Assembly (NCBI GenBank): GCA_963844865.1
Contig: CAWJPY010000020.1
Coordinates: 48,298 to 112,297, forward strand
Length of the DNA stretch: 64,000 nt
Reading direction: 5' to 3'
Origin: an uncultured Holophagae bacterium
GTDB lineage: Bacteria > Acidobacteriota > Thermoanaerobaculia > Thermoanaerobaculales > Sulfomarinibacteraceae
The notes under the pieces are model-generated. The model had not been told where the DNA came from and did not search any database. It worked only from the letters and a program-made list of their open reading frames with translations. The translations under genes and the position numbers were made by a program. This document shows positions 18,174-32,977 of this stretch, one piece after another; within the stretch, counting starts at the first letter, position 1; each line of letters opens with the position of its first letter.

Positions 18174-19292
18174 ATGGACGTGGGAGTGGTCAAGGATCGA
18201 CGGCGGTTCGAGCACCGGGTGGGCCTGACCCCCGGGGGCGTCAAGGCCATCATCGACCGCGGGCACCGGGTGTGGGTGGAGAGCGACGCCGGGCTGGACG
18301 CCGGCTTCGCCAACGCAGTCTACGAGGCCCAGGGGGCGACCATCGTCTACTCCGAGGAGGAGGTCCTCCTCCGTTCGGAGATGGTGCTGCGGGTGTCGCC
18401 GCCGGATCCGGCCGACTACGGACGCTTCCAGCCCGGCCAAGTGGTGGTGTCCTCCTGGCACCTGGCCGTGGCGTCGGCCGATGCGCTCGCCACCTTGCTC
18501 GAGCGAGAGGTGACGGCCGTGGGTTACGAGATCATCGAGGAGGACGACGGCCATGCCCCGGTGCGCGAGGCCATGAGCGAGATCGCGGGCCGCATCGCGG
18601 TGATCGTGGGGTCGGGCCTGCTGCTGAACGAGTTCGGGGGCAAGGGGCTCGTGATCTGCGGCTCCCCCGGGATCCCGCCGGCGTCGTTGGTGATCCTGGG
18701 GGCCGGCACCCTGGGGCGGGCCGCCACCCGTTTCGCCCGCGGCATCGGCGCCCACGTGGTGGTCCTGGACCGTGATGTCAGCGCCCTGCGCCGGCTGCAC
18801 ACCCAGATCGGCGCCGAGGTGCCCACCATGATGGCGACGCGCCGCAATCTGGAAAAGGCGCTGACCTTCGCCGACATCTTCCTGTGCGCGGTGGCGGTGC
18901 CCGGGGAGCGGGCGCCCCAGCTGCTGACCCGGGACATGCTGGGGCTGATGAAGCCGCGCTCCATCCTCATGGACCTGTCCATTGACCAGGGCGGGTGCTG
19001 CTCAACGTCGCGGCCCACCGACTTCTCCAATCCCACGTACGAGGTGGACGACGTCATCCACTTCTGCGTGCCCAACCTGCCGTCCACCGCGTCCCGGGCC
19101 TCCACCCGGGCCCTCACCAACTCCATGCTGCCCTACCTGGAGGCCATCGTGGACCAGGGGTTCGAGGGGGCGGTGCGCGCCAACTCGGCCCTGCGGCGGG
19201 GCACCTACACCCACCGCGGGAGCTGCGTCCGGCCGGGATTGGCGGCGGACTTCGGCTTGCCCTACGTGGATCTCAGCGAGGCCGAGTCATGA
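18174..19292 (+). CDS. alanine dehydrogenase/PNT-family NAD(H)-binding protein
   Basis: FEHRVGLTPGGV and Rossmann VILGAGTLGRAA. ATG 18174 follows GGGGGAGGA. Confidence 0.7.
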   Translation: MDVGVVKDRRRFEHRVGLTPGGVKAIIDRGHRVWVESDAGLDAGFANAVYEAQGATIVYSEEEVLLRSEMVLRVSPPDPADYGRFQPGQVVVSSWHLAVASADALATLLEREVTAVGYEIIEEDDGHAPVREAMSEIAGRIAVIVGSGLLLNEFGGKGLVICGSPGIPPASLVILGAGTLGRAATRFARGIGAHVVVLDRDVSALRRLHTQIGAEVPTMMATRRNLEKALTFADIFLCAVAVPGERAPQLLTRDMLGLMKPRSILMDLSIDQGGCCSTSRPTDFSNPTYEVDDVIHFCVPNLPSTASRASTRALTNSMLPYLEAIVDQGFEGAVRANSALRRGTYTHRGSCVRPGLAADFGLPYVDLSEAES

Positions 19293-20587
19293 GCTGGATG
19301 GATGTCTACAGGGGGCGCATGACCTCCGCCGAGGAGGCGGTGGGGGTGATCCGCTCCGGCCAGCGGGTGTGGATCCACCCCGGCTGCAACACGCCGGAGC
19401 GTCTGGTGGGCGCCATGGTGGCGCGGGCGGACGAGCTGGAGAACGTGGAGGTGGTGCACATCCTGACCCTGGGGAGAGCGCCCTACGCCGAGCCCGAGAT
19501 GGCCGGCCACTTCCGGCACCGGTCCCTGTTCACCGGCGCCAACGTGCGGGAGGCGGTGAACGAGGGTCGCGCCGACTTCGTCCCCGTCCACCTCCACGAG
19601 GTGCCGTCGCTGATCACGCGTGGGCTCCTCACCATCGACGTGGCCCTGGTCCACCTCTCCCCGCCCGACGAGCACGGCTTCTGCTCCTACGGAGCGGGTG
19701 TGGACGCCACCAAGACCGCCGTGGAGCATGCCGCCACGGTGGTGGCCCTCATCAACCGCCAGATGCCGCGCACCCTGGGAGACTCCTTCGTCCACGTGTC
19801 CAAGCTCACCCACGTGGTGGAGACCGACGAGCCGGTGCTGGAGATGCCCATGACGTCCGGTGTGTCGGAGGTGGCGCGGCAGATCGGGGAGCACGTCGCC
19901 TCACTGATCCCCGACGGCGCCACGCTGCAGATGGGCATCGGCGAGATCCCGGACGCGGTGCTCATGTACCTCGAGGACAAGAAGGACCTCGGCGTGCACA
20001 CCGAGATGTTCTCCGACGGCCTGGTGAGCCTGTTCGAGGCGGGGGTCATCACCAACGAGCGCAAGACCCTCCACCGGGGGAAGATCGTCACCTCCTTCGT
20101 GATCGGGACGCGGAAGGCCTTCGACTTCGTGGACAACAACCCGTTCATGGAGTTCCACCCCAACGAGTACGTGAACGATCCCTTCGTGATCGCCCAGAAC
20201 GAGAGCATGGTGGCCATCAACTCGGCGCTCTCGGTGGACCTCACGGGGCAGGTGTGTGCGGACTCCATCGGCCGGCGGATCTACTCTGGCTTCGGTGGCC
20301 AGCTGGACTTCATGCGCGGCGCGGCCGCCGCCAAGAACGGGGTGCCCGTCATCGCCATGCCCTCGACGGCCAAGGGAGGCGAGATCTCACGCATCGTGGA
20401 TACCCTGGCTGAAGGATCAGGGGTGGTCACCACCCGGGCCGACGTCCACCACGTGGTCACGGAGCACGGCATCGCCCATCTCTTCGGGCGCAGCCTCAGG
20501 GAGCGGGCGCGGCAGCTCATCGACATCGCCCATCCCGACTTCCGGGAGGAGCTGGAGCGCGCCGCCGCCGAGCGCCACCTCCTGTAG
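19289..20587 (+). CDS. acetyl-CoA hydrolase/transferase family (4-hydroxybutyrate CoA-transferase-like)
   Basis: 432 aa. The ATGA overlaps the previous stop. Motifs GIGEIPDAV, SALSVDLTGQVCADS and GFGGQLDF. Confidence 0.8.
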   Translation: MSWMDVYRGRMTSAEEAVGVIRSGQRVWIHPGCNTPERLVGAMVARADELENVEVVHILTLGRAPYAEPEMAGHFRHRSLFTGANVREAVNEGRADFVPVHLHEVPSLITRGLLTIDVALVHLSPPDEHGFCSYGAGVDATKTAVEHAATVVALINRQMPRTLGDSFVHVSKLTHVVETDEPVLEMPMTSGVSEVARQIGEHVASLIPDGATLQMGIGEIPDAVLMYLEDKKDLGVHTEMFSDGLVSLFEAGVITNERKTLHRGKIVTSFVIGTRKAFDFVDNNPFMEFHPNEYVNDPFVIAQNESMVAINSALSVDLTGQVCADSIGRRIYSGFGGQLDFMRGAAAAKNGVPVIAMPSTAKGGEISRIVDTLAEGSGVVTTRADVHHVVTEHGIAHLFGRSLRERARQLIDIAHPDFREELERAAAERHLL

Positions 20588-21151: not shown

Positions 21152-22426
21152 TCACTTCCCTGTCACCGCGCGCCGCGCCCGGCCCAGGGCCACGTAGGCC
21201 ACGAGGACCTCGAAGCGGGCCGGCTCGAGAGGGAACCGGTACCGGCGAACGACGGTCGGCCCCCCGCCTGCGGCCACGGCGATGATCGCGGTGCCTGCCG
21301 GCACCCCGTCGGCGGCGGACGCCGTCCCGACGGTGGCGACGCCGACGCCGGCGGAGAAGCGGCGACGCACCGCCTCGGCCATGAGGACAGCCGCCTCGTC
21401 ACTGAGGAGGCCGGCTCGCTCCAGGTCGGCCGGCGGGATATCGAGCCCGCCGCTGACGCTGGGAAGGGTAGGGGCCAGGACACCGCCAAGGTAGACCTCT
21501 CCGACCCCGGCGACCGGGTCCAGGAGCTGGGCCACGGCGCCGGCGGTGCAGCCCTCGGCCGCGGCCAGGGTCGTCCCGTGACGCTGGAGGTCCTCCACCA
21601 CGCTTTCGGCGAAGGTGGTGTCCACCCGCCCCGGGCCCCAGGCGTAGACGTGCCTGCCGAGGCGTTGCCTGGCATCCGCCGCGATGCCTGCGAGCAGCTC
21701 GTTGCCACGGTCGTCGGCGATCCCGCGCAGCACCAGGCGCACGTGGATCTCAGGAAAGGTGGCCCGGTACTGCACCACGAGCTCCGAGCCCTCGGGGAGG
21801 TCCGCGCCGAGGCCCTCGAGCCGGCGTGCCACGTCACTTTCCCCCGCCCCGAAGATCTTGAGCACGGCCACGTCGGGCAGGGCCGGTCGCAGCCGGACAC
21901 GGAGCTCGGGGAGCACCGTCGTCTCGAAGATGTCCACGATCTCCCGGGGGACACCGGGCATGAAGTAGAGCCGGCAGCCGTCCGCGTCCACGGCGAACCC
22001 CACCGCAGTGCCCGAAGGGTTGGGGAGGATGGCTGCGCCTGCGGGGAGATCCGCCTGCTTCTCGTTGTTGGGGCTCATGGGGCGGCCACGGGCGGCGAAG
22101 AAGTCCCGGACGTGACGGAGCGCCTCGGGTGAGCGGACCAGGGGAACGCCGAAGGCCTCGGCCGCGCAGGCGGCGGTGAGGTCGTCACCGGTAGGTCCCA
22201 GCCCCCCGGAGACCAGCACCACGTCGCAGCGTGGGGCCATCTGGCGGAGGGCCGTCACCACCTCCGGGAGGTCATCGCCCACCGAGGTGTGGCGGACCAC
22301 CCGGTAGCCCTCGCCGTCCAGCCGCTCGGAGAGGGCCGCCGCGTTGGTGTCCACCAGCCGGCCCTCGATGAGCTCGTCCCCGATGGTCAGGATCTCGATC
22401 CGATTCGTTCCGCGTGTCAAGGTCAC
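21152..22426 (-). CDS. cinA: competence/damage-inducible protein CinA (MoCF-binding plus PncC-like nicotinamide-nucleotide amidase domains)
   Basis: 424 aa with ILTIGDELIEGRLVDTNAA..VSGGLGPTGDDLT and C-terminal ..GCTAGAVAQLL. GTG start. Confidence 0.85.
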   Translation of the reverse strand: MTLTRGTNRIEILTIGDELIEGRLVDTNAAALSERLDGEGYRVVRHTSVGDDLPEVVTALRQMAPRCDVVLVSGGLGPTGDDLTAACAAEAFGVPLVRSPEALRHVRDFFAARGRPMSPNNEKQADLPAGAAILPNPSGTAVGFAVDADGCRLYFMPGVPREIVDIFETTVLPELRVRLRPALPDVAVLKIFGAGESDVARRLEGLGADLPEGSELVVQYRATFPEIHVRLVLRGIADDRGNELLAGIAADARQRLGRHVYAWGPGRVDTTFAESVVEDLQRHGTTLAAAEGCTAGAVAQLLDPVAGVGEVYLGGVLAPTLPSVSGGLDIPPADLERAGLLSDEAAVLMAEAVRRRFSAGVGVATVGTASAADGVPAGTAIIAVAAGGGPTVVRRYRFPLEPARFEVLVAYVALGRARRAVTGK

Positions 22427-22560
22427 CGTCGTCTCCCATCGATGGGTGCAGCATGCTCCGAGCGGGACCGACGGTCAATCCCGACCGGTTCCGATGAGCA
22501 CTCGTCGCGATATGCCATGGGAATATCTCGACTCGTGGTCCGATATACTTGACGCACACC

Positions 22561-25500
22561 ATGGTCCAGCGAGTCGATTCGGCGCGGCCGCAGTCGGGGG
22601 CGTTGCTGGCCAACCTGGAGGAGACCCGGCGCGAGGTGGTGGTCCCACCCCGCTTCCAGCTTCTCCTCGATGCGGTGGAGCGCTACTACGGTGTCCGCCA
22701 GGTGGCGGACAAGCTCCTCGTGGAGCTCTTCCATCCCCTGCGCAACCTGGATGAGGTGGCGGGGCTGCTCAAGAACCTCACCGGCAGCGCGTTTTCCTAC
22801 TACGAGCGCACCGACGAGCGCGTGCGCTGCGCCGAGCTCATGGATGAGCTGTTCGGTGAGCTGTACGACGGCGTCGAGGACACCACGGCGCTGACAGGCC
22901 TGGTGGGCTCCCATCTGGAGCTCTTCGAGAACCTGCGCCGCTCGCCCCACGCCTCCTCGTACCGGGAGGTGGCGGGCACGATCTTGGAGCGACTGCTCGA
23001 GGTGCAGGCCCGCGACGGGCGGCCGCTGCTCCGCTTCGCCACGCAGCTCCGCCGCGTCGGGCGCAGCCTCCCCGACGACGGCGAGCTGACCGGGTCCTGC
23101 TCCCGCCTCTATGCCGGCGTGGTCAGGCTGGGCCTGGACGTCTTCTGGAGCCAGGTGGACCTCGGCGGATGGGCGGGCGGCCACCCGCCCGAGACGGCGG
23201 CCTCCCTCCGGTCCATCGTGGCCACGCCGCTGGCGCGCGCGGTGTCCACCGCCCGCGCCGCGCTCGCAGGCAGGGAGGATTCGGCGCGCGTGCTGGAGCT
23301 GCCGCACCTGGACGAGCTCCTCGACCAGACGCTGGAGCGGTCCCGTGACCTGCCGGGTGCCATCGAGCGCATCGGCCTGTATGTGCACCTGGCCGGAGTG
23401 CCGGAGCTCACCCACCGCAACATGGAGGTCCTGAGGGCCCTCTACTTCGCCATCGAGAGCGTGTGCGCCTCCGGAAGCGGGGACGACATCGTGCGTGCGG
23501 TGGACCTGATCACCGATCATCTGGCGGTCTGCGAGCCCGCCCACAAGCGGCTGCTCTACAAGTGCCTGGAGAAGCTGGGAGGCGGCATCGCGCGCGGAAG
23601 CGATGACGCGCTGGTCCGGCACTTCGTGGAGCGCGCCATCGCCACCGGCTTCGAGGCGCCGGACATCCGCGGCGTGTCCGAGGAGTGGCAGACCTTCGTC
23701 AACCCGCACCACCTGCCCTGCCTGCGGGCCTGGCTGGCGGTGATCGAGCGCGATCCCATCACCTTCGAGGAGCTGCTGTCGGCGCTGCTCATCAACCTCC
23801 ACTTCCGGGGCGTGTTCGTGGCCGACACGGACCTCTTCCAGCGCGACATCTCGGCGCTCCTGAACAGCGACATCGCCGACGCCTTCAACCTCATCGTCCA
23901 GCTCGTGGGCTACTTCCCGGTGTTCTTCAACGAGGTGGGCTCGGAGGGGGAGCTGCGCGAGGTCTCGACCCGCATCGACCAGCTCCTGCACCGGCGCGAC
24001 CCGGTGATCCACTTCCTGCGCAAGCAGTCCCACGCCGAGAGCAACAACCGCCTGGTGGGGTTTGCCGCCGCGGTGTACCGCTACTGGCGAACCGGCGCCG
24101 CCGAGCCGCTGGCCGGCTATCTTCCCGCGGCGGTGCTCGCGGAGCTGGATCAGGACGCGGACTGGAACCAAGCCACCCACCGCGTTGTGGAGGCCCTGGC
24201 TCGGCAGGGGATCACAGAGGAGAGGCTGGACAAGGTGTCCCTCGCGGACCTGGAGGAGGCCCTCGCCACCAGCGGCGTTGACGACGAGGTGGCCCGGGAA
24301 CGGGTCCTCCTGCTGGTGAGGCTGTACCGTCTGCTGAAGGCCAAGTACTCCTACGATCCCGGGCACCTGCTGGCGCAGATGGAGCTGTCGCCCCTCCTCT
24401 CCCGGGAGGCCCGCGAGCGCTTCGCCGTGGCCTGCGCCCAAGGCGACCACCTCCTGATCGTGAGCGCCGGCAACGGGGTGCTCGAGGAGCTGAAGGACAC
24501 CATCATCGACGGCAAGGTCACCGAAGCCTTCGAGAACATCTACCACAAGCGCCACATCGCGGCCGGCATCCCGTCCATGTACGGCACGTACTCGGAGCCC
24601 AAGTTCGACGCCATGGGCCTGTTCCTGCGCGTCATGCAGTTTTTGAAGCCGCACCTGGAGGGGTGCGTCGCCGACTTCAACTTCCGCTACATGACCAGGG
24701 AGTCCATCCGCGCGGCCCACGGCATCATGGCCGAGATGCTCAGGGGCCTGCGCATCGCCGGCCTCAGGGTCCAGCACCTGACCTCGAAGCTGGGCATCCT
24801 GGAACGGGGCATCGCTCTGGGGACCCTCTCGGCGGCCCAGTTCCTGAACATCCTGGACTTCATGTCGGAAGCGCTCAACGACGTCGTCGAGTCCAACTAC
24901 ATCGCGCTGCATGACACCAATCTGGAGCGCATGGCGCGGCGGTTGGCCGAGGAGTGCGGAGCGGAGGATGCGGCCGGGGACGACAAGGGCAGGCTGTCGG
25001 AGCGCTTCCTCCGCGACGTCATCTCGTCGACCTACGCCATCCAGGAGCTCGACCTCATCCTGCGCCGGATGCGGCAGAGCCTGCGCAGCATGACGGCCTC
25101 CCTGTCGGACGCCATCTGCGCCGTGATCCTCACCTACACCCCGACCCGCCTGGTCTCCCACATCCACGATCCCCTGGCCGAGCACGAGGACCAGCTCTGC
25201 CTCGGCTACAAGGGCTACTCCCTCAAGGTCGTCCGGGCCCTCGGCCTGCCGGTGCCGGACGGGTTCGTGATCTCCACCGAGCTGTTCCGTCTCCTGCCCG
25301 CCCTCGGCTACGAGGACCTCATGGCGGACACCAGGGAGCGGCTGCGCGGCGGCCGTGGCCCGCCTCGAGGAGATCAGCGGCCGCCGCCTCGGTGATCCGA
25401 CGCGACCGCTGCTGCTGTCGGTGCGTTCGGGCGCCGCCTTCTCCATGCCCGGCATGATGGACACCATCCTGAACGTGGGCCTCAACGAGGAGGTGATCGC

Positions 25501-26682
25501 CGGCATGTCGGGGACCCCCGAGGCCGCATGGGGCGCCTGGGATTGCTACCGTCGCTACCTCCAGAACGTGGCCATGTCGCGGGGCGCCGAGCGCGACCAC
25601 TTCGACCAGATCATGCTGCGCTTCAAGGAGCGCCACCGGGTAGAGCGCAAGACCGAGTTCACGCCGACCCAGATGCGGGACATGGCGCTGGCCTACCGAG
25701 ACCTGGCGGCACGCAGGAGGGCGTGGAGCTCACGGACGACCCTCTCGAGCAGCTCACGGAGTCGGTGTTCCTGGTGATGCGGTCGTGGGAGTCGGAGCCG
25801 GCGCGCATCTACCGCTCCCAGCTCCAGCTCGCCGACGCGTGGGGGACCGCCGTCATCGTGCAGCAGATGGTGTTCGGCAACATGAACGCCTCCTCGGGTT
25901 CGGGAGTGGTCTTCACCCGCAACCCCCGCTCCTCCTCCACCGGCATCGGCCTGTTCGGGGACTTCACGCGCTGCTCGCAGGGAGAGGATGTGGTGGGCGG
26001 GCTGGTGCATCCCTATCCCGTCAGCGAGAAGCAGCGCCTGGAGTACTCGCCGCAGCTCGACATCTCCCTGGAGTCCCAGTTCCCGGACATCTACGGGCGG
26101 CTGCGGGCGATCGCGTCGGAGCTCATCAACGAGCACGGCTACGAGCACCAGGAGATCGAGTTCACGTTCTCCTCGGGCGCGGCCGAGGACCTCTCCATCC
26201 TCCAGATCCGCCCGATGCGCCTGTTGAGGCAGCAGGCGCTGCCGGTCTTCGTGGACGCCGAGGCGGCGCGGGCGGCGCTGGTCGCCACCGGCATCGGCGT
26301 CTCGGGGGGCGCCCTGTCGGGCCGGGTGGCGTTCAGCCTGGTCGACGTGCGCAGATGCCGGGAGCAGCATCCCGACGACGGCGTGATCCTGCTGCGGCCC
26401 GACACCGTGCCGGAGGACATCCACCTGGTGCTCGGGGTGGATGGGCTACTGACCGCCCGGGGAGGGTTCACCTCCCACGCCGCCGTCACCGCCAAGCGAC
26501 TGGGCAAGTGCTGCGTGGTCAACTGCAAAGCACTCGTTGTGGACGACACCAACAACCTGGCTCGGATCGGCGGACGGGCGCTCCTCGCCGGAGACCCCAT
26601 CGCCATCGATGGGCTGTCGGGTCGGGTCTATCTGGGCGAGCACGCCGTCACCGAGATGGTGACGCCGGTCCGTGTGACCTGA
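22561..26682 (+). CDS. orphan dikinase: ~900-aa uncharacterised N-terminal region, then a PPDK-type ATP-grasp domain and a phosphohistidine swivel domain, with no TIM-barrel PEP/pyruvate domain and two compensating frameshifts
   Basis: LLLSVRSGAAFSMPGMMDTILNVGLN, GTAVIVQQMVFGN, GVVFTRNP, CSQGEDVVGG and RGGFTSHAAVTAKRLGK. Frame changes fall near 25345-25352 and 25708-25712. An alternative TTG start is at 22549. Confidence 0.75.
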
Positions 26683-26701
26683 GGGGGGCGAGGAGAAGGG
26701 C

Positions 26702-27997
26702 ATGACGCAGACGAGCGCGTTGGGCATCAACGGCCTGGGGAGGATCGGCAAGCTGGCGGTGTGGACCGAGGTGGCCGGCCGGCGCTTCGACAGACTGGTC
26801 GTGAACACCGGCCGCGGGGTGGGGCGCTCCCTCGACGCCCTGGCCCACTACCTCTCGGTGGACAGCACCTACGGCGCCTTGGGCCGATTCCTGCATGGAT
26901 GGGGTGGTGAACGGGGCTGTGTGCGCATTGCGGATCGCGACCGCCAGCTCCTGGACATCGACGGCGTGACCGTGCAGCTCCTCACCCAGCATCGCAACCC
27001 CAAGGACATCGGGTGGGCGGACCACGGGGTGCGCCTGGTGGTGGACACCACCGGCGTCTTCCGGGATCCGACCCATCCCGCGTCCCATCCGGGGGGCAGC
27101 CTGCAGGGCCACCTGGAGGCGGGGGCGCAGGCCGTGCTGGTGAGTGCCGCCTTCAAGCTCTCGGACCGCGGCGCGCGGCTCCCGGAGGAGAGCGTGATGC
27201 TGATCTACGGCATCAACCACCAGGTCTACGACCCCGCGCACCACTCCATGATCTCCGCCGCCTCGTGCACCACCACCGCCCTGGCCCACATGATGCTGCC
27301 CCTGCTCAACCACCAGCTCACCCACCAGATGCTCACCGCCTCCATGTCCACGGTCCACGCCGCCACCAACTCCCAGAGCGTGCTCGACACCGTGCCCAAG
27401 AGCGGGGCCAAGGACCTGCGCAAGAACCGGTCGGTGATGAACAACATCATCCTCACCTCCACCAACGCCGCCCAGGCGCTGGAGCAGGTGATCCCGGAGA
27501 TCTCAACCATCGGGTTCCTCGCGGACTCGGTGCGCATCCCCATCCCGACCGCCTCCCTCATCATCCTCAACTGCACCTTCCAGTCCCGCCTCGACGACTA
27601 CGGCGCCAGCCTCATCAACCGCGGTTCGGTGAACGCCATCTACGCCGACTACGCCCGCGGCCCCGAAAGCGGAGTGGTGTTCTCCAACGACCAGAACGTG
27701 TCCACCGACATGGTGGGCGAGCCGGCGGCGGTGGTCATCGAGGGCTCGGAGACCCACGCCCGGACCGGCTTCACCCACGTGGACCTGGCCGAGCTGGGGC
27801 TGAGTGCCGCCACCGGCGGCCTGGAGCGGGTGGAGGTGCCGGTCACCCACCTCAAGCTGTTCGGGTGGTACGACAACGAGCTCGGCTCCTACACCAGGCG
27901 CATGAGCCAGCTCACCCACTTCGTGGCCGAGCGCCTGGGAATCGAGACGCCCAAGAGCATCACGGCGGCAAAGCCGGTGCCAGGCACCCCGTCTTGA
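26702..27997 (+). CDS. glyceraldehyde-3-phosphate dehydrogenase-like oxidoreductase (atypical, 431 aa)
   Basis: GINGLGRIGK Rossmann motif and a catalytic-Cys region SAASCTTTALAHM. GAGGAGAAGGG precedes the ATG. The last ~8 codons and the stop lie inside X copy h. Confidence 0.7.
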   Translation: MTQTSALGINGLGRIGKLAVWTEVAGRRFDRLVVNTGRGVGRSLDALAHYLSVDSTYGALGRFLHGWGGERGCVRIADRDRQLLDIDGVTVQLLTQHRNPKDIGWADHGVRLVVDTTGVFRDPTHPASHPGGSLQGHLEAGAQAVLVSAAFKLSDRGARLPEESVMLIYGINHQVYDPAHHSMISAASCTTTALAHMMLPLLNHQLTHQMLTASMSTVHAATNSQSVLDTVPKSGAKDLRKNRSVMNNIILTSTNAAQALEQVIPEISTIGFLADSVRIPIPTASLIILNCTFQSRLDDYGASLINRGSVNAIYADYARGPESGVVFSNDQNVSTDMVGEPAAVVIEGSETHARTGFTHVDLAELGLSAATGGLERVEVPVTHLKLFGWYDNELGSYTRRMSQLTHFVAERLGIETPKSITAAKPVPGTPS

Positions 27998-28042
27998 TTT
28001 GACAGTACGCGCACCGCCTCAGCCGAAAGGGTGCCTGGCACC
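27976..28042 (+). repeat. X element copy h (subfamily 1)
   Basis: GGTGCCAGGCACC, then ccgtcttgatttgacagtacgcgcaccgcctcagccgaaag, then GGTGCCTGGCACC. Confidence 0.9.
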
Positions 28043-28053
28043 CGCTCTGGCGT

Positions 28054-28335
28054 TCAGAATTGAAACAGGAGCTTCCAGCCAACGAAGAAGACCGCCGCGT
28101 CGGCGACCACGTGCCCGACCCGCGGCGCGGAAAGGCGCAGCCGACCCCTCTCCACCAGAACGTACCAGAGAGCCGGGAAGAGCACGATCCACGCCTTGCA
28201 GGCGAGGAACGCCGCTCGGCCCAGGGAGGTGCCCGGCCACAGCGCCATGGCGGCGAGGACGCCGAAGCTGGGGACCGGGGCCAAAAGGAGGATCGCGGCC
28301 AGCGCCCGAGCCCTGCCGGCCCGTTCCCGGGGCAC
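28054..28335 (-). CDS. small membrane protein, possibly a 3'-truncated CPBP-like fragment
   Basis: ALAAILLLAPVPSFGVLAAMALWPG..ACKAWIVLFPALWYVLVERGRLRL. It ends abruptly 12 nt from X copy h. The GTG start is a guess. Confidence 0.3.
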   Translation of the reverse strand: MPRERAGRARALAAILLLAPVPSFGVLAAMALWPGTSLGRAAFLACKAWIVLFPALWYVLVERGRLRLSAPRVGHVVADAAVFFVGWKLLFQF

Positions 28336-28349
28336 GTTGCCGGCGGTGC

Positions 28350-29136
28350 TCAGTCGGCCTCCTCGAACAGCGTGGGGGGCAGGGTGGAGGGGCGCGTCAC
28401 CTTCTCGTCGGCGAACACCACGGTGATGGTGCGGAATCGATCGCCGCCCCACTGGCCCTCCGAGAGCAGCCAGCCGCGCACGAACTCGGCCAGCCGTCGG
28501 CGGCAGGTCTCACGCACGAGGTCGATGGTGTCGGGGTCGGCGGCGCGGCGGCTCAAGAGCTCTGGTGAGGCTGCGCTCCAGGTCGGCCATCCGCTCGTCG
28601 GCGTCGAAGCGCAACCACCCGCTCTCACTGTGCTTCTCCAGCCCGGCCGTGTCGATGGCCGGGGGCAGGGTGGGCCGGATGGGGGGGGCCCGGACCAGGC
28701 AGCGGTGGTCATGTACCGTCAGACGCCAGGGTTCGTCGAGCCGGATGTGATAGCGGTAGGTCACCGGGACCCGGATCTCCGAGGTGGTCGTGCCCAGGGG
28801 GAGCAGGTCGAAGAGCACGCGACGGTCGTCGGATCGGGTGAAGGTCTCGGTGGCTTGGACCGCGGTGAGCTCCAGCTTGGTGCCGCCGGACACCAGGTGG
28901 GGCAGGGAGGCGATGAAGGTGGTGGTGATGGTCCCGGTCCGGAACCGGGCCGCGACGTCCGCCGCCTCCTCGGACACCGCCTTCGCGCCCGTTGCGAACA
29001 TGCCGCAGGCCTGCTGGACCGCCAGGTAACCGAGGACGGCGAGCAGCATTCCCACCAGCGGCCAACGCCAGGCGTGCAGTGCAACGTGTCGCCGGGGCGG
29101 CCGCGGCTCCGGCGTGGGTGACGGGCCCGAGCTCAT
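28350..29136 (-). CDS. membrane-anchored hypothetical protein (DUF4230-like guess), one frameshift near 28560
   Basis: The 208-aa ORF (TM WPLVGMLLAVLGYLAV..) continues in another frame as ..DPDTIDLVRETCRRRLAEFVRGWLLSEGQWG..VVFADE. Confidence 0.5.
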
Positions 29137-29170
29137 GATGGAACCATGGTACCCGTACGGCCCGGTTCCG

Positions 29171-29265
29171 CGACAGCGTCAGCGAGCAGGGGCAGCGAGC
29201 AGGGTCGGCCACGGCGGCAGTCATCAGCGACGGCGTTCGGCGGCAGCGTCCGCGGCAGCGAACAG
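29171..29265. repeat. Z arm (CAGCG sense)
   Basis: cgacagcgtcagcgagcaggggcagcgagc..catcagcgacggcg..ggcagcgtccgcggcagcgaac. Confidence 0.6.
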
Positions 29266-29477: not shown

Positions 29478-30339
29478 CTACAGGTTGTCGGCCAGGAAGC
29501 GCACCGTCTCCTGCCACGCCTCGGCCGCCGCCTTGGGGTCGTAGTTGCGCCCGGACGGATTGGCGAAGGCGTGTCCCGCATCGGGGTAGACGATGATGGT
29601 GGCGTCCTTGCCGAGGTCGTGGAGCGTGTCCTCGAAGCGTCGGACCTCGGCCGGCGGGATGCTCTGGTCCCGGCCGCCGAAGAAGCCCAGGATGGGCATT
29701 TCGAGCGTTGCGAGCTCGCTCGCGGTCGGTGACCAGGCTGCCGTAGTAGATGATGACGGCGGCCAGGGTGCGCGGCATGGCGAGGGCGGTGCGCAGGGAC
29801 CAGCCGCCGCCGAAGCACCAGCCGATGCTCGCCACCTTCGGCGCCCCGACGTCGTTGGCCAGGTAGCCGTAGGCCTGACGGAGGTTGGAGAGCGCCTGCG
29901 GTGGGTGGTCGTTGGCCGCCATGGCCAGCTCGCGGGCGGCTGCGGGCTCCTCAGCGGTGCGGCCTCCGTACAGGTCCACCGCCAGCGCCGCGTAGCCTTC
30001 GCCGGCGAGGCGCCGGGTCATGGCACGGATGTTGTCGTTGAGCCCCCACCACTCGTGGATGACGAGGAGGCCGGGCAGGTCCTCGGCTCCCTGCTCGGGG
30101 CGGGCCAGATAGCCCTTCACGGACTGCCCGTCCACGGTGGCGTAGACGACCGTCTCGCCGGTCACCGGCACTGCCGGGGCGGCCTCGGAGACGGGGTTGG
30201 CCACCGGTGCGTCGCCCCGGTGCTCCCGGGCCATGCGCTCCACAGTCTCGTTCTGGTTGTCGCCGTCGTCGCCGGCGCCGGCCGACCCGGTCCACATGAG
30301 GGCCAGTGCGACGAGCCCGATCGTGATGGTCTCCATCAT
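29478..30339 (-). CDS. dienelactone hydrolase family protein with signal peptide, one frameshift near 29730
   Basis: MMETITIGLVALALMWTGSAGA..LLVIHEWWGLNDNIR..IGWCFGG, then in a new frame MPILGFFGGRDQSIP..YPDAGHAFANP. Confidence 0.75.
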
Positions 30340-30407: not shown

Positions 30408-31516
30408 TCAGGCGAAGTCGCGCAGCCGCACCGGCAGCCGGCGCGGCCCCAGCGGCCGGGCGGGGCGTCGAAGCGGCCGGCGCAGGGCGTGCCGCAGCTG
30501 CGGCAGCGGCCGTCGTCGGTCGAGGTTCCAGTGGCAGAGCTCGTACCAGTCGCGGCCGATCAGCAGCTCGCCGCAGTCGTGGCAGTAGGTGCTGCCGCCG
30601 GCCGGGTCGTGGACGTTGCCGGTGTAGGCGTAGCGGACGCCGTTGCGCCATGGCGATGCGCGCGGGCGCGGGTCAGCGTCGCCGGCGGCGTCGGCGGGAT
30701 GTCCCGCATCTTGTAGTCGGGGTGGAAGGCGGTGAAGTGCAGCGGCACGTCCGGGCCCGAGCTCGTCGACGACCCAGCGGGTCATCGCGTCGAGCTCCGC
30801 GTCGGAGTCGTTCTCGCCGGGGATCAGCAGCGTGGTGATCTCGAGCCAGACGTCGGTCTCGTGCGTCAGGTAGCCAGGGTGTCGAGCACCGGCTGCGAGG
30901 CTGGCCGCCGCAGATCTGCTGGTAGAAGCGCTCGGTGAACGCCTTGAGGTCGACGTTGGCGGCGTCCATGTGGGCGATAGAACTCGCGCCCGCGGCTCGG
31001 CGCAGATCGTAGCCGGCGGTGACCGCCACCGTCGTTGATGCCCCGCTCGCGGCAGGCCTGCGCGACGTCGACGGCGTACTCGAGGAAGATCACCGGGTCG
31101 TTGTAGGTGAAGGCGACGCTGCGGCAGCCGAGCTGCTCGCGCGGCGCGGGCGATGGTCTCCGGGCGCGGCCTGCGTCGGCCAGGGTGTCCATCTCGCGCG
31201 ACTTGGAGATGTCCCAGTTCTGGCAGAACTTGCAGGCCAGGTTGCAGCCGGCGGTGCCGAAGGAGAGCACCGGCGTGCCGGGCAGGAAGTGGTTGAGCGG
31301 CTTCTTCTCGATCGGGATCGACGCAGAAGCCGCTGGAGCGGCCGTAGGTGGTCAGCACGATCTGCGTCGCCCTCGCGCGCGCGCACGAAGCACAGGCCGC
31401 GCTGGCCGTCGCTGCAGCTGGCACAGCCGCGGGCAGACGTCGCACTGGACGCGGCCGTCCTCCAGGCGGTGCCAGTAGCGCGTGGGGTGCAGGTCGATGT
31501 TGGTGTCGGTAGCCAT
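30408..31516 (-). pseudogene. amrS: AmmeMemoRadiSam system radical SAM enzyme, at least ten frame changes
   Basis: Conserved blocks are scattered over all three minus frames: [170 protein letters not shown] and [28 protein letters not shown]. Confidence 0.8.
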
Positions 31517-31664
31517 GCTCGTTCCCCGGGGGCACCGAGGTCCGCTCTCGCGCAACTGGACGACGCCGGGTCCCGATTCCCTCGTTTCACCACACGCCCA
31601 CGTCGGCTCACGCGGCCACTCACCGACCGCCGCCACTGCCGTGGTCGCCGACGCCGCCCGCTGG

Positions 31665-32977
31665 TCAGGAGGAGGAACTCTCCGGTGCCGCCATGATCGT
31701 GCCCCGGACCTCGCCGAAGCCGATCCGCACGCCGTCCTTCTCCGCCGCCATCCTGTCATGACCACGGTGTCGCCGTCCTGGAGGAACTTCCGGGTGCCGC
31801 CCCCGGGGAGCGGATGGGCTTGGTGCCCGCGCCAGGTGAGCTCGAGCAGGTTCCGAGGTAACCGGCGGTCGGGCCGGAGATCGTGCCCGAGGCTAGGAGG
31901 TCGCCGGGGCGCAGGTTGCAGCCGTTGACGGTCATGGTGGGCGAGCTGCTGGAACACGCTCCAGTACATGTGCCGGAAGTTGGAGGTGGCGATCCGGCGC
32001 CGGGCCTCGTCCATGCGCTCGGCTCTGGAGCCACACCTCGAGGTGGATGTCGTAGGCGCCGTCGCCCCGGCCGGGCGCAGGTAGGGGAGGGGCTCGGGAT
32101 CCTGCGCCGGCCCTGCGGTCCGGAAGGGCTCCAGGGCGTCCATGGTCACGACCCAGGGCGAGATGGAGGTGGCGAAGCTCTTGGCCAGGAAGGGCCCGAG
32201 CGGGGACGTACTCCCACTTCTGGATGTCCCGCGCGACCAGTCGTTGACCAGGACCATGCCGAAGATGTGCTCCTCGGCATGCGGCGATGGGCACGGGGTC
32301 TCCGAGCGGGGTTGCCGGGACCGACGAAGAAGCCCATCTCGAGCTCGAAGTCCAGGAGGCGGCTCGGCCCGAAGCACCGGGGCCTCGGCCTCGTCGGGGC
32401 GTGTCTGGCCCCAGGGGCCGGCGGACGCCGCGTGCCGCTGAGACCACGATGGAGCTGGACCGGCCGTGGTAGCCCACGGGGAGATGGCAGCCAGTTGGGC
32501 AGGAGCGCGTTGTCCGGCCCCCGGAACATGGTACCCACGTTGGTGGCGTGCTCGCGGGAGCGAGTAGAAGTCGGTGTAGTCGCCGATGCTCGCGGGCGGC
32601 AACAGCTCGACCGATGCGGTGCGCCACAGGGCCGCGTCGCGCAGACCCTCGTCGTCGCGCAGCCGAGGTTCATCGGCGCGCAGCAGCCGGGTAAGGGTGG
32701 CGCGAGCCTCGCGCCAGGCGGGGCGCCCCAGCTCCATGAAGGCGTTGAGGGAGTCCTCGTGGAAGACCCGGCTTCCCGCCAGCGAAGGACCGTCGAAGAG
32801 CCGGCTCTCGGCCAGGACGGCCAGGTCGAGGACGCAGTCGCCGATGGCCACGCCGACCCTGGGGATGGACGCGACCCGTGGCCGGAAGACCCCGAACGGC
32901 AGGTTCTGGATGGGGAAGTGGCTGTCCGGGGGGACGTCCACGAAGGAGCGCGCGCTGGAGTCGTGTTGGGTCACCAT
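31665..32977 (-). pseudogene. fumarylacetoacetase (FahA-like), at least eight frame changes
   Basis: Blocks in different frames: [179 protein letters not shown] and GVRIGFGEVRGTI. Confidence 0.8.

Follow-up and report, generated by a model that had tools for sequence, protein, structure and literature searches.

Introduction

Few parts of biology are as conserved as the steps from glyceraldehyde-3-phosphate (G3P) to 3-phosphoglycerate (3-PG), for which, to our knowledge, very few natural variants have been described. PGK and GAPDH interconvert 3-PG, 1,3-bisphosphoglycerate (1,3-BPG) and G3P, PGK by direct transfer between ATP and ADP. A similar chemical logic is found in the gene pairs proB/proA, ask/asd and argB/argC, where one product forms a labile acyl phosphate and that of the neighbouring gene reduces it; the reductases ASADH and ArgC share a GAPDH-type Cys/His catalytic domain. 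Moreover, succinyl-CoA synthetase combines ATP-grasp and phosphohistidine chemistry in a system capable of making an acyl phosphate.

Phosphohistidine also carries the phosphate in the His-swivel dikinases, whose best-known member is pyruvate,phosphate dikinase (PPDK, EC 2.7.9.1; Clostridium symbiosum structure 1KBL). It joins an ATP-grasp domain and a swivelling phosphohistidine domain to a C-terminal TIM barrel for PEP/pyruvate, with Cys831 as proton donor. Rifampin phosphotransferase (RPH), glucan-water dikinase, phenylphosphate synthase and PigC/RedH follow the same logic with a family-specific acceptor module instead of the TIM barrel. The short mycobacterial-type PPDK-like proteins (NF004531 / PRK05878; about 500 aa) consist of ATP-grasp and His domains and nothing beyond; as far as we know, their function is unsettled.

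Here we describe a dikinase gene and its partner, a long GAPDH variant (GapL), in a 64-kb stretch of DNA from an uncultured Holophagae bacterium (the window), and compare them with their relatives in other genomes. The dikinase belongs to an uncharacterised, unannotated family with a large N-terminal all-alpha domain (N-domain), and the pair may carry out a step of lower glycolysis or gluconeogenesis that has not been described before.

Results

Reading frame of the dikinase gene

The features of the locus are collected in Table 1. A first-pass annotation of the window had reported a product of about 1370 aa, which is recovered as an ORF free of internal stops after removal of three inserted bases, but the window itself contains no single ORF of this length. 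The longest uninterrupted one (22549-25395) has 948 aa, and the reading passes from frame 1 to frame 2 and back to frame 1; the premature stop is a consequence of the +1 insertion. The motifs quoted in that annotation are all present, a 26-letter motif in frame 2 and a 31-letter motif together with TARGGFTSHAAVTAKRLGK in frame 1. Since intact homologs begin at the position of the ATG, translation likely starts there rather than at the TTG at 22549.

Table 1. Features of the dikinase-gapL locus (positions in the window).
Feature	Position	Strand	Remarks
Dikinase gene	22561..26682	+	1372-1373 aa once corrected; frames 1, 2, 1 owing to 3 inserted bases
N-terminal all-alpha domain	22561..25170	+	aa 1 to ~870; proposed acceptor-binding or catalytic domain
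Invariant motif DTDLFQRD	23824..23847	+	aa 422-429, N-domain
Invariant motif HFLRKQSHAESNN	24010..24048	+	aa 484-496, N-domain
Invariant motif YHKRHIAAGIPSMYG	24541..24585	+	aa 661-675, tip of beta hairpin at residues 657-678
PPDK-type ATP-grasp nucleotide-binding domain	25201..26289	+	aa ~881-1240; contains both frameshifts
Extra C (+1) vs L001	25345..25345	+	switches the frame from 1 to 2
Premature stop codon, frame-1 ORF	25393..25395	+	results from the +1 insertion
Extra AG (+2) vs L001	25715..25716	+	brings reading back to frame 1
Phosphohistidine swivel domain (PEP-utilizers)	26290..26682	+	catalytic His codon CAC 26476-26478, in GGFTSHAAV
Spacer dikinase-gapL, 19 nt	26683..26701	+	ribosome-binding site GAGGAG upstream of gapL
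gapL, long GAPDH variant, 431 aa	26702..27997	+	Cys189 at 27266-27268, His219 at 27356-27358

If the frameshifts were real, this copy would be a very recently inactivated pseudogene, which would concern this copy alone and not the function of the family. The two indels and the premature stop are in line with such a decay, as is an independent assembly (L169) that is frameshifted about 25 codons upstream of the first shift in the window; however, the shift in L169 falls in a G run. The reference for our indel calls, locus L001, is 98.7% identical and intact; P0001 is the intact relative of 1372 aa, and more than 100 homologs are uninterrupted as well. Codon differences between the window and L001 are mostly silent (44 synonymous, 14 nonsynonymous), and the segment read in frame 2 shows a single nonsynonymous change. 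Furthermore, neighbouring genes of the window also carry frameshifting insertions, and in a 2-kb region (30447-32560), flanked by genes of 99-100% identity, about 65 indels are crowded together, which is typical of sequence error and incompatible with neutral decay. A pseudogene is thus unlikely; the three bases are probably assembly errors, because L001 and the homologs are intact and nearby genes show similar indels.

A PPDK-type phosphotransfer module at the C-terminus

As had been proposed, the dikinase combines an N-terminal region of its own with an ATP-grasp and a phosphohistidine domain and has no TIM barrel. Pfam reported PPDK_N (PF01326) and PEP-utilizers (PF00391, E 7.8e-18) and no match to the PEP/pyruvate TIM barrel (PF02896), and these two are the only Pfam domains in the more than 100 homologs. 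Residues 880-1362 align with residues 17-511 of PPDK (1KBL; E 3e-79). The protein stops 57 aa beyond the histidine motif, at a point that corresponds to PPDK residue ~511. The alignment retains K22, R92 (VRSGA), G101/M103 (MPGMMDT), the RR of YRRF, EFT and Q335/R337, and GGFTSHAAV matches the GGMTSHAAV of PPDK with its T-S-H motif. Judged by this comparison, the last 490 aa form an ATP-grasp and phosphohistidine module derived from PPDK, in which every aligned catalytic residue is kept.

Among the NCBIfam models, TIGR01828 (PPDK; cut-off 843) was the best match, scoring 104 bits on one C-terminal piece and 224 on the other, followed by NF004531 / PRK05878 (68 and 180 bits on two pieces; cut-off 456). 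The missing PF02896 and the score below cut-off argue against an equivalog PPDK. Rifampin phosphotransferase (NF041857) did not fit either, with 34 bits against a cut-off of 999, a match confined to the His domain, and a different domain order, since RPH has its rifampicin-binding domain between ATP-grasp and His domains. Neither the dikinase nor GapL matched a PADLOC defence-system model.

A conserved all-alpha domain as candidate acceptor site

The region of about 870 aa ahead of the ATP-grasp had been described as mostly helical and devoid of recognised motifs, and both points were borne out: it has no match among the characterised domains of Pfam, NCBIfam or the PDB, and its AlphaFold model is almost wholly helical (pLDDT 87.6, pTM 0.80). 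In an alignment of 61 homologs, about 40 polar residues are invariant, including R61, R389, R466, R478, R487, K488, H491, K595, K663, R664, H665, R690, R818 and many Asp/Glu. This pattern would fit an active site for a polyanionic ligand and Mg. Since pLDDT is low at the YHKRHIAAGIPSMYG loop, this segment may be mobile. The fold resembles no known phosphoglycerate-binding fold and is unrelated to every PEP-binding fold found in the comparison, and the homolog alignment contains no invariant Cys that could replace Cys831 of PPDK.

The domain occurs solely as a fusion to the PPDK-type module. It would stand in for the third, acceptor module of the His-swivel dikinases, and that it forms the acceptor site is reasonably probable. 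In the first-pass annotation the dikinase had been called an orphan; instead, it belongs to a large family, which comprises 384 clusters at 50% identity and is present in no fewer than 571 species genomes from about 12 phyla. Anaerobic members of the Acidobacteriota, Actinomycetota, Bacteroidota, Cloacimonadota, Desulfobacterota, Bacillota and other phyla commonly have it. Source annotations name its members just PPDK, PEP synthase or PEP-utilizing enzyme.

GapL retains the catalytic residues of GAPDH

The 431-aa GAPDH-like gene noted earlier does follow closely, at a spacing consistent with co-transcription. GapL is built of Gp_dh_N and Gp_dh_C domains and carries GINGLGRIGK and SAASCTTTALAHM. 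In common with type I GAPDH (TIGR01534; Thermus 1VC2) it has the WYDNE motif, the catalytic pair Cys149/His176 (here Cys189/His219, invariant across 58 GapL sequences) and the phosphate-site residues T179, T208 and R231, while R195 is conservatively replaced by K. It differs from type I GAPDH in six clade-specific insertions, which make it about 80 aa longer, in the substitutions N146A, N152T and P156H, and in the loss of D32 beside a GRxVG insertion; because of this last change, GapL may use NADP(H). Its score of 277.9 bits against TIGR01534 stays below the curated cut-off of 367.2. The GapL-specific insertions bear the invariant His/Thr/Arg motifs ETHTRTGF and VTHxK.

A sister clade of GapL takes the position of gap in gapL-pgk-tpi operons (L106, L108, L124). 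The label "atypical GAPDH-like" therefore falls short, in view of the retained catalytic and phosphate-site residues and of the role that the sister clade fills.

The dikinase and GapL form a conserved pair

Gene neighbourhood, which had been suggested as a check, gave a strongly positive result across about 12 phyla, in hundreds of mostly anaerobic bacteria. The two genes adjoin in 58 of 73 informative dikinase loci; no gapL lies nearby in the other 15 (Desulfobulbaceae/Electrothrix, Acetobacterium and others). Paired genes are separated by some 11-19 nt, or the stop codon of one overlaps the start of the next by 4 nt. The association is reciprocal, as the dikinase is present at 35 of 43 gapL loci, whereas the N-domain occurs at none of 26 canonical GAPDH loci, one of which has merely a PPDK-like match 2.5 kb off. 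Apart from gapL, no conserved neighbour was found across the dikinase loci.

In several phyla the pair adjoins canonical gap or heads gap-pgk-tpi. We observed dikinase-gapL-gap-pgk-tpi in L007 and L079, a divergent gapL next to dikinase-gap-pgk::tpi in seven Thermoleophilia loci, and gap-dikinase-gapL in Bacteroidota, Cloacimonadota and Ignavibacteria. In the window, gapL comes after the dikinase, and the 64 kb yielded neither pgk nor tpi. Overall, the dikinase shows a tight genetic linkage to GapL, and often one to canonical gap, pgk and tpi as well; a conserved pair of the two that functions at the GAPDH step is likely.

Discussion

Our comparison of the dikinase and GapL across phyla narrows the chemistry in which they could take part. 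The first-pass annotation had suggested a module acting on an unspecified metabolite or polymer. Because GapL keeps the Cys/His pair and the phosphate-site residues and its sister clade replaces gap, the most likely place of action is instead the G3P/1,3-BPG step, and the gap-pgk-tpi context points in the same direction. In our proposal, the His-swivel dikinase and its dedicated GapL are encoded in one operon and act together at the stage of G3P, 1,3-BPG and 3-PG. The ATP-grasp domain would load the swivelling His from ATP, probably with conversion of Pi to PPi as in PPDK, and the N-domain would serve as acceptor site, with the carboxylate of 3-PG as acceptor: 3-PG + ATP (+ Pi) <-> 1,3-BPG + AMP + PPi (or Pi). 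The labile acyl phosphate would be reduced to G3P, or supplied in the reverse direction, by GapL, which probably forms a complex with the dikinase. The result would be a bypass of PGK that shifts the equilibrium by about 15 kJ/mol.

The individual parts of this proposal differ in strength. The choice of 3-PG/1,3-BPG as acceptor, drawn from gene context alone, is tentative; the 15 of 73 loci that lack gapL and an N-domain unlike phosphoglycerate-binding folds speak against it. That the full reading applies, namely a 3-phosphoglycerate, phosphate (or water) dikinase built on a new all-alpha catalytic domain, which makes or consumes 1,3-BPG, passes it directly to GapL and provides an AMP/PPi-coupled PGK bypass in many anaerobes, is possible but somewhat doubtful. 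In some genomes pgk shares the operon with the dikinase, so a bypass is not obviously needed there. Moreover, a stoichiometric supply of PPi for a glycolytic role is doubtful on thermodynamic reasoning, which leaves the direction of the reaction uncertain. The frameshifts in the window copy also count against the proposal.

A different small molecule, such as glycerate, a sugar phosphate or a cofactor, might bind to the N-domain, with GapL acting before or after the dikinase on an acyl phosphate or phosphorylated aldehyde related to it. Relatives with exchanged acceptor domains use very diverse substrates (rifampicin, glucan, phenol, a prodigiosin precursor), NCBIfam gave weak matches to RPH and RedH, and both the unmatched fold and the loci without gapL would be compatible with such a substrate. 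However, GapL retains the residues of the G3P/Pi site and its sister clade substitutes for gap, phyla that are not related repeatedly have the module beside canonical gap, pgk and tpi, and no further conserved neighbour indicates another pathway; we regard a different substrate as doubtful.

The strict pairing with a co-evolving GAPDH subclade could also mean that the dikinase serves GapL or GAPDH as a protein kinase or phosphorelay partner, in which the N-domain docks the dehydrogenase and His~P phosphorylates one of its residues, either for regulation or for phosphate delivery into the active site. Enzyme I of the PTS docks HPr through a helical subdomain in a comparable manner, and the invariant motifs in the GapL insertions would be in keeping with this role. 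Yet about 40 invariant polar residues over 870 aa suggest an active site rather than a docking surface, ETHTRT is shared by sister-clade GapL proteins without a nearby dikinase, and dikinase chemistry would be a costly means of regulation, which makes this role quite unlikely. Finally, a non-orthologous pyruvate,phosphate dikinase, with the N-domain as a new PEP/pyruvate module and the GAPDH link reflecting glycolytic operon organisation, is very unlikely, since the pairing is specific to GapL and not to glycolytic genes generally, and the N-domain has neither a substitute for Cys831 nor a PEP-binding fold, even though the C-terminal domains are far closer to PPDK than to other family members, TIGR01828 tops the NCBIfam matches and the gene lies among glycolytic genes.

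Should the proposed 3-PG dikinase and PGK bypass prove true, glycolysis and gluconeogenesis in low-energy anaerobes would have an energy balance that needs revision, and the acceptor domains of His-swivel dikinases would gain a new fold. Even with another acceptor, the domain of 870 aa offers a new and well-defined target.

Among the known systems, PPDK is closest to the dikinase, with ATP-grasp and swivelling domains, TSH motif and nucleotide/Pi-site residues in common; the dikinase differs in the missing TIM barrel, the all-alpha domain ahead of the ATP-grasp and the pairing with a GAPDH variant. As in RPH, its His domain is C-terminal. In contrast to RPH, glucan-water dikinase, phenylphosphate synthase and PigC/RedH, it would have its acceptor module at the N-terminus, and this all-alpha module is much larger than theirs and shares no sequence relationship with them; its genomic partner is a GAPDH. 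The NF004531 / PRK05878 proteins end likewise after the His domain, but lack the N-domain. PGK together with GAPDH carries out the same overall chemistry that we propose for the pair; PGK shows no sequence or fold kinship with the dikinase, which would couple ATP/AMP and Pi/PPi through a phospho-enzyme instead. The kinases of proB/proA, ask/asd and argB/argC, by contrast, are no dikinases and have no sequence relationship to ours; the analogy is purely mechanistic. At this level, the logic of the dikinase and GapL would match both the relation of PPDK to pyruvate kinase and that within the pairs of a kinase and an acyl-phosphate reductase.

Architecture and spread of the dikinase family

The C-terminal part of the dikinase is built from PPDK modules. 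Residues 880-1362 can be aligned with PPDK residues 17-511 (E 3e-79) across the ATP-grasp and swivelling phosphohistidine domains, and the protein retains both the TSH catalytic motif and the nucleotide- and Pi-site residues covered by the alignment. Pfam detects PPDK_N and PEP-utilizers but neither a PEP/pyruvate TIM barrel nor any match in the first ~870 aa. The protein ends where the PPDK linker to the barrel begins; the first-pass annotation was right to describe this domain as absent. Homologs are named in databases only as PPDK, PEP synthase or PEP-utilizing enzyme. With the defining barrel lacking and the NCBIfam PPDK models scoring far below their cut-offs, we reject an assignment as PPDK; assignment as RPH was likewise rejected. 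We place the enzyme in the His-swivel dikinase superfamily, its putative acceptor module being of a new kind.

The N-terminal ~870 aa (N-domain) define a widespread family. A search with the first 866 aa recovered over 120 full-length homologs (1340-1450 aa), every one with PF01326 and PF00391 and none with a TIM barrel. An exhaustive HMMER search yielded 384 clusters at 50% identity, with the domain confined to proteins built in this way and fragments of them. With each species represented by one genome, a scan gave at least 571 carriers, among them Acidobacteriota, Methylomirabilota, Thermoleophilia, Gaiellales, Coriobacteriia, Cloacimonadota, Bacteroidota, Ignavibacteria, Dehalococcoidia and Bacillota (e.g. 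Acetobacterium carbinolicum), as well as many Desulfobacterota (Geobacter, Desulfobulbaceae including cable bacteria, strain NaphS2 and Syntrophales).

AlphaFold modelled the N-domain confidently from a 61-sequence alignment (pLDDT 87.6, pTM 0.80) as an almost wholly helical fold with a single beta hairpin at 657-678. Against the PDB, Foldseek returned only generic alpha-solenoids (e.g. karyopherins, SF3b; TM at most 0.19), and nothing meaningful came from a profile search of PDB sequences, from NCBIfam or from Pfam (E <= 5) run with six diverse N-domains. Some 40 polar residues stay invariant among homologs as distant as ~27% identity; they include D422, D424, D429, R487, K488, H491 and the KRH at 663-665, and lie in motifs such as the three in the table. 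Judged from the alignment, they form a putative active-site signature rather than a scaffold, and the excess of invariant Arg/Lys/His and Asp/Glu would suit a polyanionic ligand with Mg. Neither the dikinase family nor its pairing with GapL was found described in the full-text literature collection searched.

Features in the window and in homologous loci (L-numbers); aa, dikinase residues
Feature	Location	Coordinates	Strand	Remarks
Acetyl-CoA hydrolase/transferase gene	window	18995-20587	+	further upstream of dikinase
CinA-type gene	window	21152-22426	-	divergent from dikinase; MoCF_biosynth and CinA domains
Antisense ORF	window	22423-25506	-	1027 aa, ATG-initiated
Dikinase ORF, first part	window	22549-25395	+	948 aa
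Extra C	window	25345	+	versus L001
Premature stop	window	25393-25395	+	consequence of insertion at 25345
Dikinase ORF, second part	window	25528-26682	+	384 aa
Extra AG	window	25715-25716	+	versus L001
gapL	window	26702-27997	+	431 aa; start 19 nt after dikinase stop, behind GAGGAG ribosome-binding site
Hypothetical gene	window	~28350-29049	-	232 aa; split by insertion versus L001
Dienelactone-hydrolase-family gene	window	~29478-30339	-	also split by insertions versus L001
Indel-rich stretch	window	30447-32560		2 kb
DTDLFQRD	N-domain	aa 422-429		invariant polar residues
HFLRKQSHAESNN	N-domain	aa 484-496		invariant polar residues
YHKRHIAAGIPSMYG	N-domain	aa 661-675		invariant polar residues; low-confidence tip of hairpin
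pgk-tpi fusion	L044	13316-15271		651 aa
selA-dikinase-gapL-selB	L020	6599-15310		one Cloacimonadota genome
Histidine-phosphatase-superfamily gene	L075	7290-7898		ends 7 nt before dikinase start
Dikinase called as two genes	L169	6001-10139		921 + 457 aa; Acidobacteria metagenome contig
gapL-pgk-tpi	L106	1039-4784		no dikinase within flanks
gapL-pgk-tpi	L108	4325-8073		no dikinase within flanks
gapL-pgk-tpi	L124	5995-9377		no dikinase within flanks

Conserved pairing with a long GAPDH variant

A close homolog of GapL (50-75% identity), the long GAPDH variant encoded after the dikinase, adjoins the dikinase in 58 of the 73 genome loci with enough flank. It lies directly downstream on the same strand in 48, with short spacers or start/stop overlap, divergently upstream in nine and convergently in one. 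Conversely, a metagenome scan found the dikinase next door in 35 of 43 informative GapL-type loci, so that the two-gene module suspected from the single sequence is conserved from either partner's side. At canonical-GAPDH loci from the same scan the N-domain was absent (0/26), one locus having a PPDK-like match 2.5 kb off.

In about 21 loci a canonical GAPDH gene of ~334 aa also touches the module. The order is gap-dikinase-gapL in Bacteroidota, Cloacimonadota and Ignavibacteria, and dikinase-gapL-gap-pgk-tpi(-secG) in two Desulfobacterota loci. Seven Thermoleophilia loci have a divergent gapL followed by dikinase-gap-pgk::tpi within the actinobacterial uvrC-rapZ-yvcK...gap-pgk-tpi region; here, in L044 and the six others, dikinase-gap is immediately followed by a gene that fuses phosphoglycerate kinase to triosephosphate isomerase.

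All-against-all ORF clustering of 85 loci revealed no other recurrent gene family; what it did find was limited to antisense shadow ORFs and synteny within particular clades. A selenium link suggested by the placement of the pair between selA and selB in L020 was treated as coincidence, tblastn finding no sel genes beside the module in any other locus. A phosphoglycerate-mutase-like neighbour (His_Phos_1) directly upstream of the dikinase was too narrow a link, being limited to three loci of Candidatus Electrothrix (L059, L064, L075), cable bacteria with no gapL near the dikinase; the next gene in L075 encodes a multihaem cytochrome/globin fusion. The CinA-type gene of the window, whose product is NAD-salvage related, and the acetyl-CoA hydrolase/transferase gene are not conserved beside the module in other loci. 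A defence-system reading was rejected, as no PADLOC model matches the dikinase or GapL. Rfam found no family anywhere in the 64-kb window.

GapL carries both GAPDH Pfam domains and scores 278 bits against TIGR01534 (cut-off 367); it belongs to the GAPDH lineage, yet falls below the type I equivalog cut-off. GapL proteins form a coherent clade with six insertions and a median of 414 aa, versus 334 aa for canonical GAPDH. Cys149, His176, T179, T208, R231 and WYDNE are retained, Lys replaces R195, and Asp32 is missing beside a GRxVG insertion, a loss that may hint at NADP(H) use. Six of the eight dikinase-less GapL loci belong to a sister subclade with the same insertions but VTQ in place of VTHxK. 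In three loci (L106, L108, L124) this sister form is directly followed by pgk and tpi, taking the place that gap has in the classical operon. Therefore, GapL is most likely a genuine glyceraldehyde-3-P dehydrogenase, and in some bacteria the housekeeping gap gene appears to be of the long type.

Reading frames of the window copy

All motifs quoted in the first-pass annotation were recovered, the 26-letter motif in frame 2 and the 31-letter motif and TARGGFTSHAAVTAKRLGK in frame 1. The two parts of the dikinase ORF share one frame, with a frame-2 stretch connecting them. P0001, the closest homolog, is intact at 1372 aa and has a start equivalent to the ATG at 22561; the contig that carries it, L001, matches window positions 21163-29196 at 98.7% identity. 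Once the three bases that are extra relative to L001 are removed, the ORF is clean. The corrected ORF differs from L001 by 44 synonymous and 14 nonsynonymous codons, only one of the latter inside the shifted segment, so that selection acted until very recently.

Additional insertions of one or two bases relative to L001 occur at 28563, 29442 and 29717; those at 28563 and 29717 frameshift genes following the pair. Further on, ~65 mostly single-base indels are concentrated in the 2-kb stretch, across radical-SAM and fumarylacetoacetate-hydrolase genes, and the flanking genes are 99-100% identical to L001 at the protein level. Since the L001 genes in this stretch are intact and carry Pfam matches, the indels point to sequence errors confined to this part of the window's assembly; the stretch looks like low-quality assembly, and the pattern is incompatible with neutral decay. 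The three extra bases in the dikinase are probably an artefact too. A very recent pseudogene in this genome would account for the premature stop and is unlikely given the clean corrected frame. Programmed frameshifting was rejected, as it needs two different shifts 370 nt apart, absent from the 98.7%-identical relative.

A natural two-polypeptide dikinase, suggested by P0045 (921 aa, N-domain only), was also rejected: the two gene calls in L169 meet at a frameshifted G run, ~25 codons before the point where the window copy first changes frame, and the domains are not naturally divided there. The antisense ORF is a shadow of a conserved high-GC gene (window G+C ~70%) and was dismissed as a second gene. 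All homology lies on the + strand, and similar antisense ORFs recur in homologous loci.

Discussion

To our knowledge, every characterised family member (PPDK, PEPS, RPH, GWD, PigC) combines an ATP-grasp and a swivelling His domain with a third domain, which binds the acceptor and so sets the substrate. In the dikinase the N-domain is the sole candidate for this third module and seems reasonably likely to be the acceptor site. Its one conserved neighbour encodes an enzyme that presumably forms or uses 1,3-bisphosphoglycerate, and the two proteins probably form a functional pair at the GAPDH step. From these two points we propose that ATP (with Pi) would load the dikinase His by PPDK-type chemistry, for which the relevant residues are all kept, and that His~P would swing over to the N-domain, where the carboxylate of 3-phosphoglycerate would be phosphorylated. 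GapL, probably bound to the dikinase, would reduce the labile acyl phosphate to glyceraldehyde-3-P, and the system could also run in reverse. By our calculation from standard free energies, 3-PG + ATP + Pi -> 1,3-BPG + AMP + PPi costs about +4 kJ/mol versus +19 kJ/mol for PGK, so that gluconeogenesis would be easier by this route when energy charge is low. A role in bulk glycolysis, for which PPi would be needed in stoichiometric amounts, seems less likely.

The choice of 3-PG/1,3-BPG as acceptor is tentative: some operons hold pgk together with the module, and 15 of the 73 loci lack gapL, both of which count against it. Another small-molecule acceptor is a somewhat more doubtful alternative. 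That the dikinase phosphorylates, or phosphorelays to, GapL or GAPDH itself would fit genes that touch so often and is rather improbable. Least probable is a non-orthologous true PPDK.

The pair is of interest because it is widespread and belongs to the part of metabolism that varies least; two recombinant proteins would suffice to test its proposed role directly. Adjacent genes for a kinase and an acyl-phosphate reductase are familiar from proB/proA, ask/asd and argB/argC, which share the two-step logic proposed here for the dikinase and GapL. Moreover, succinyl-CoA synthetase, which makes an acyl phosphate with an ATP-grasp and a phosphohistidine, provides a precedent for the proposed chemistry.
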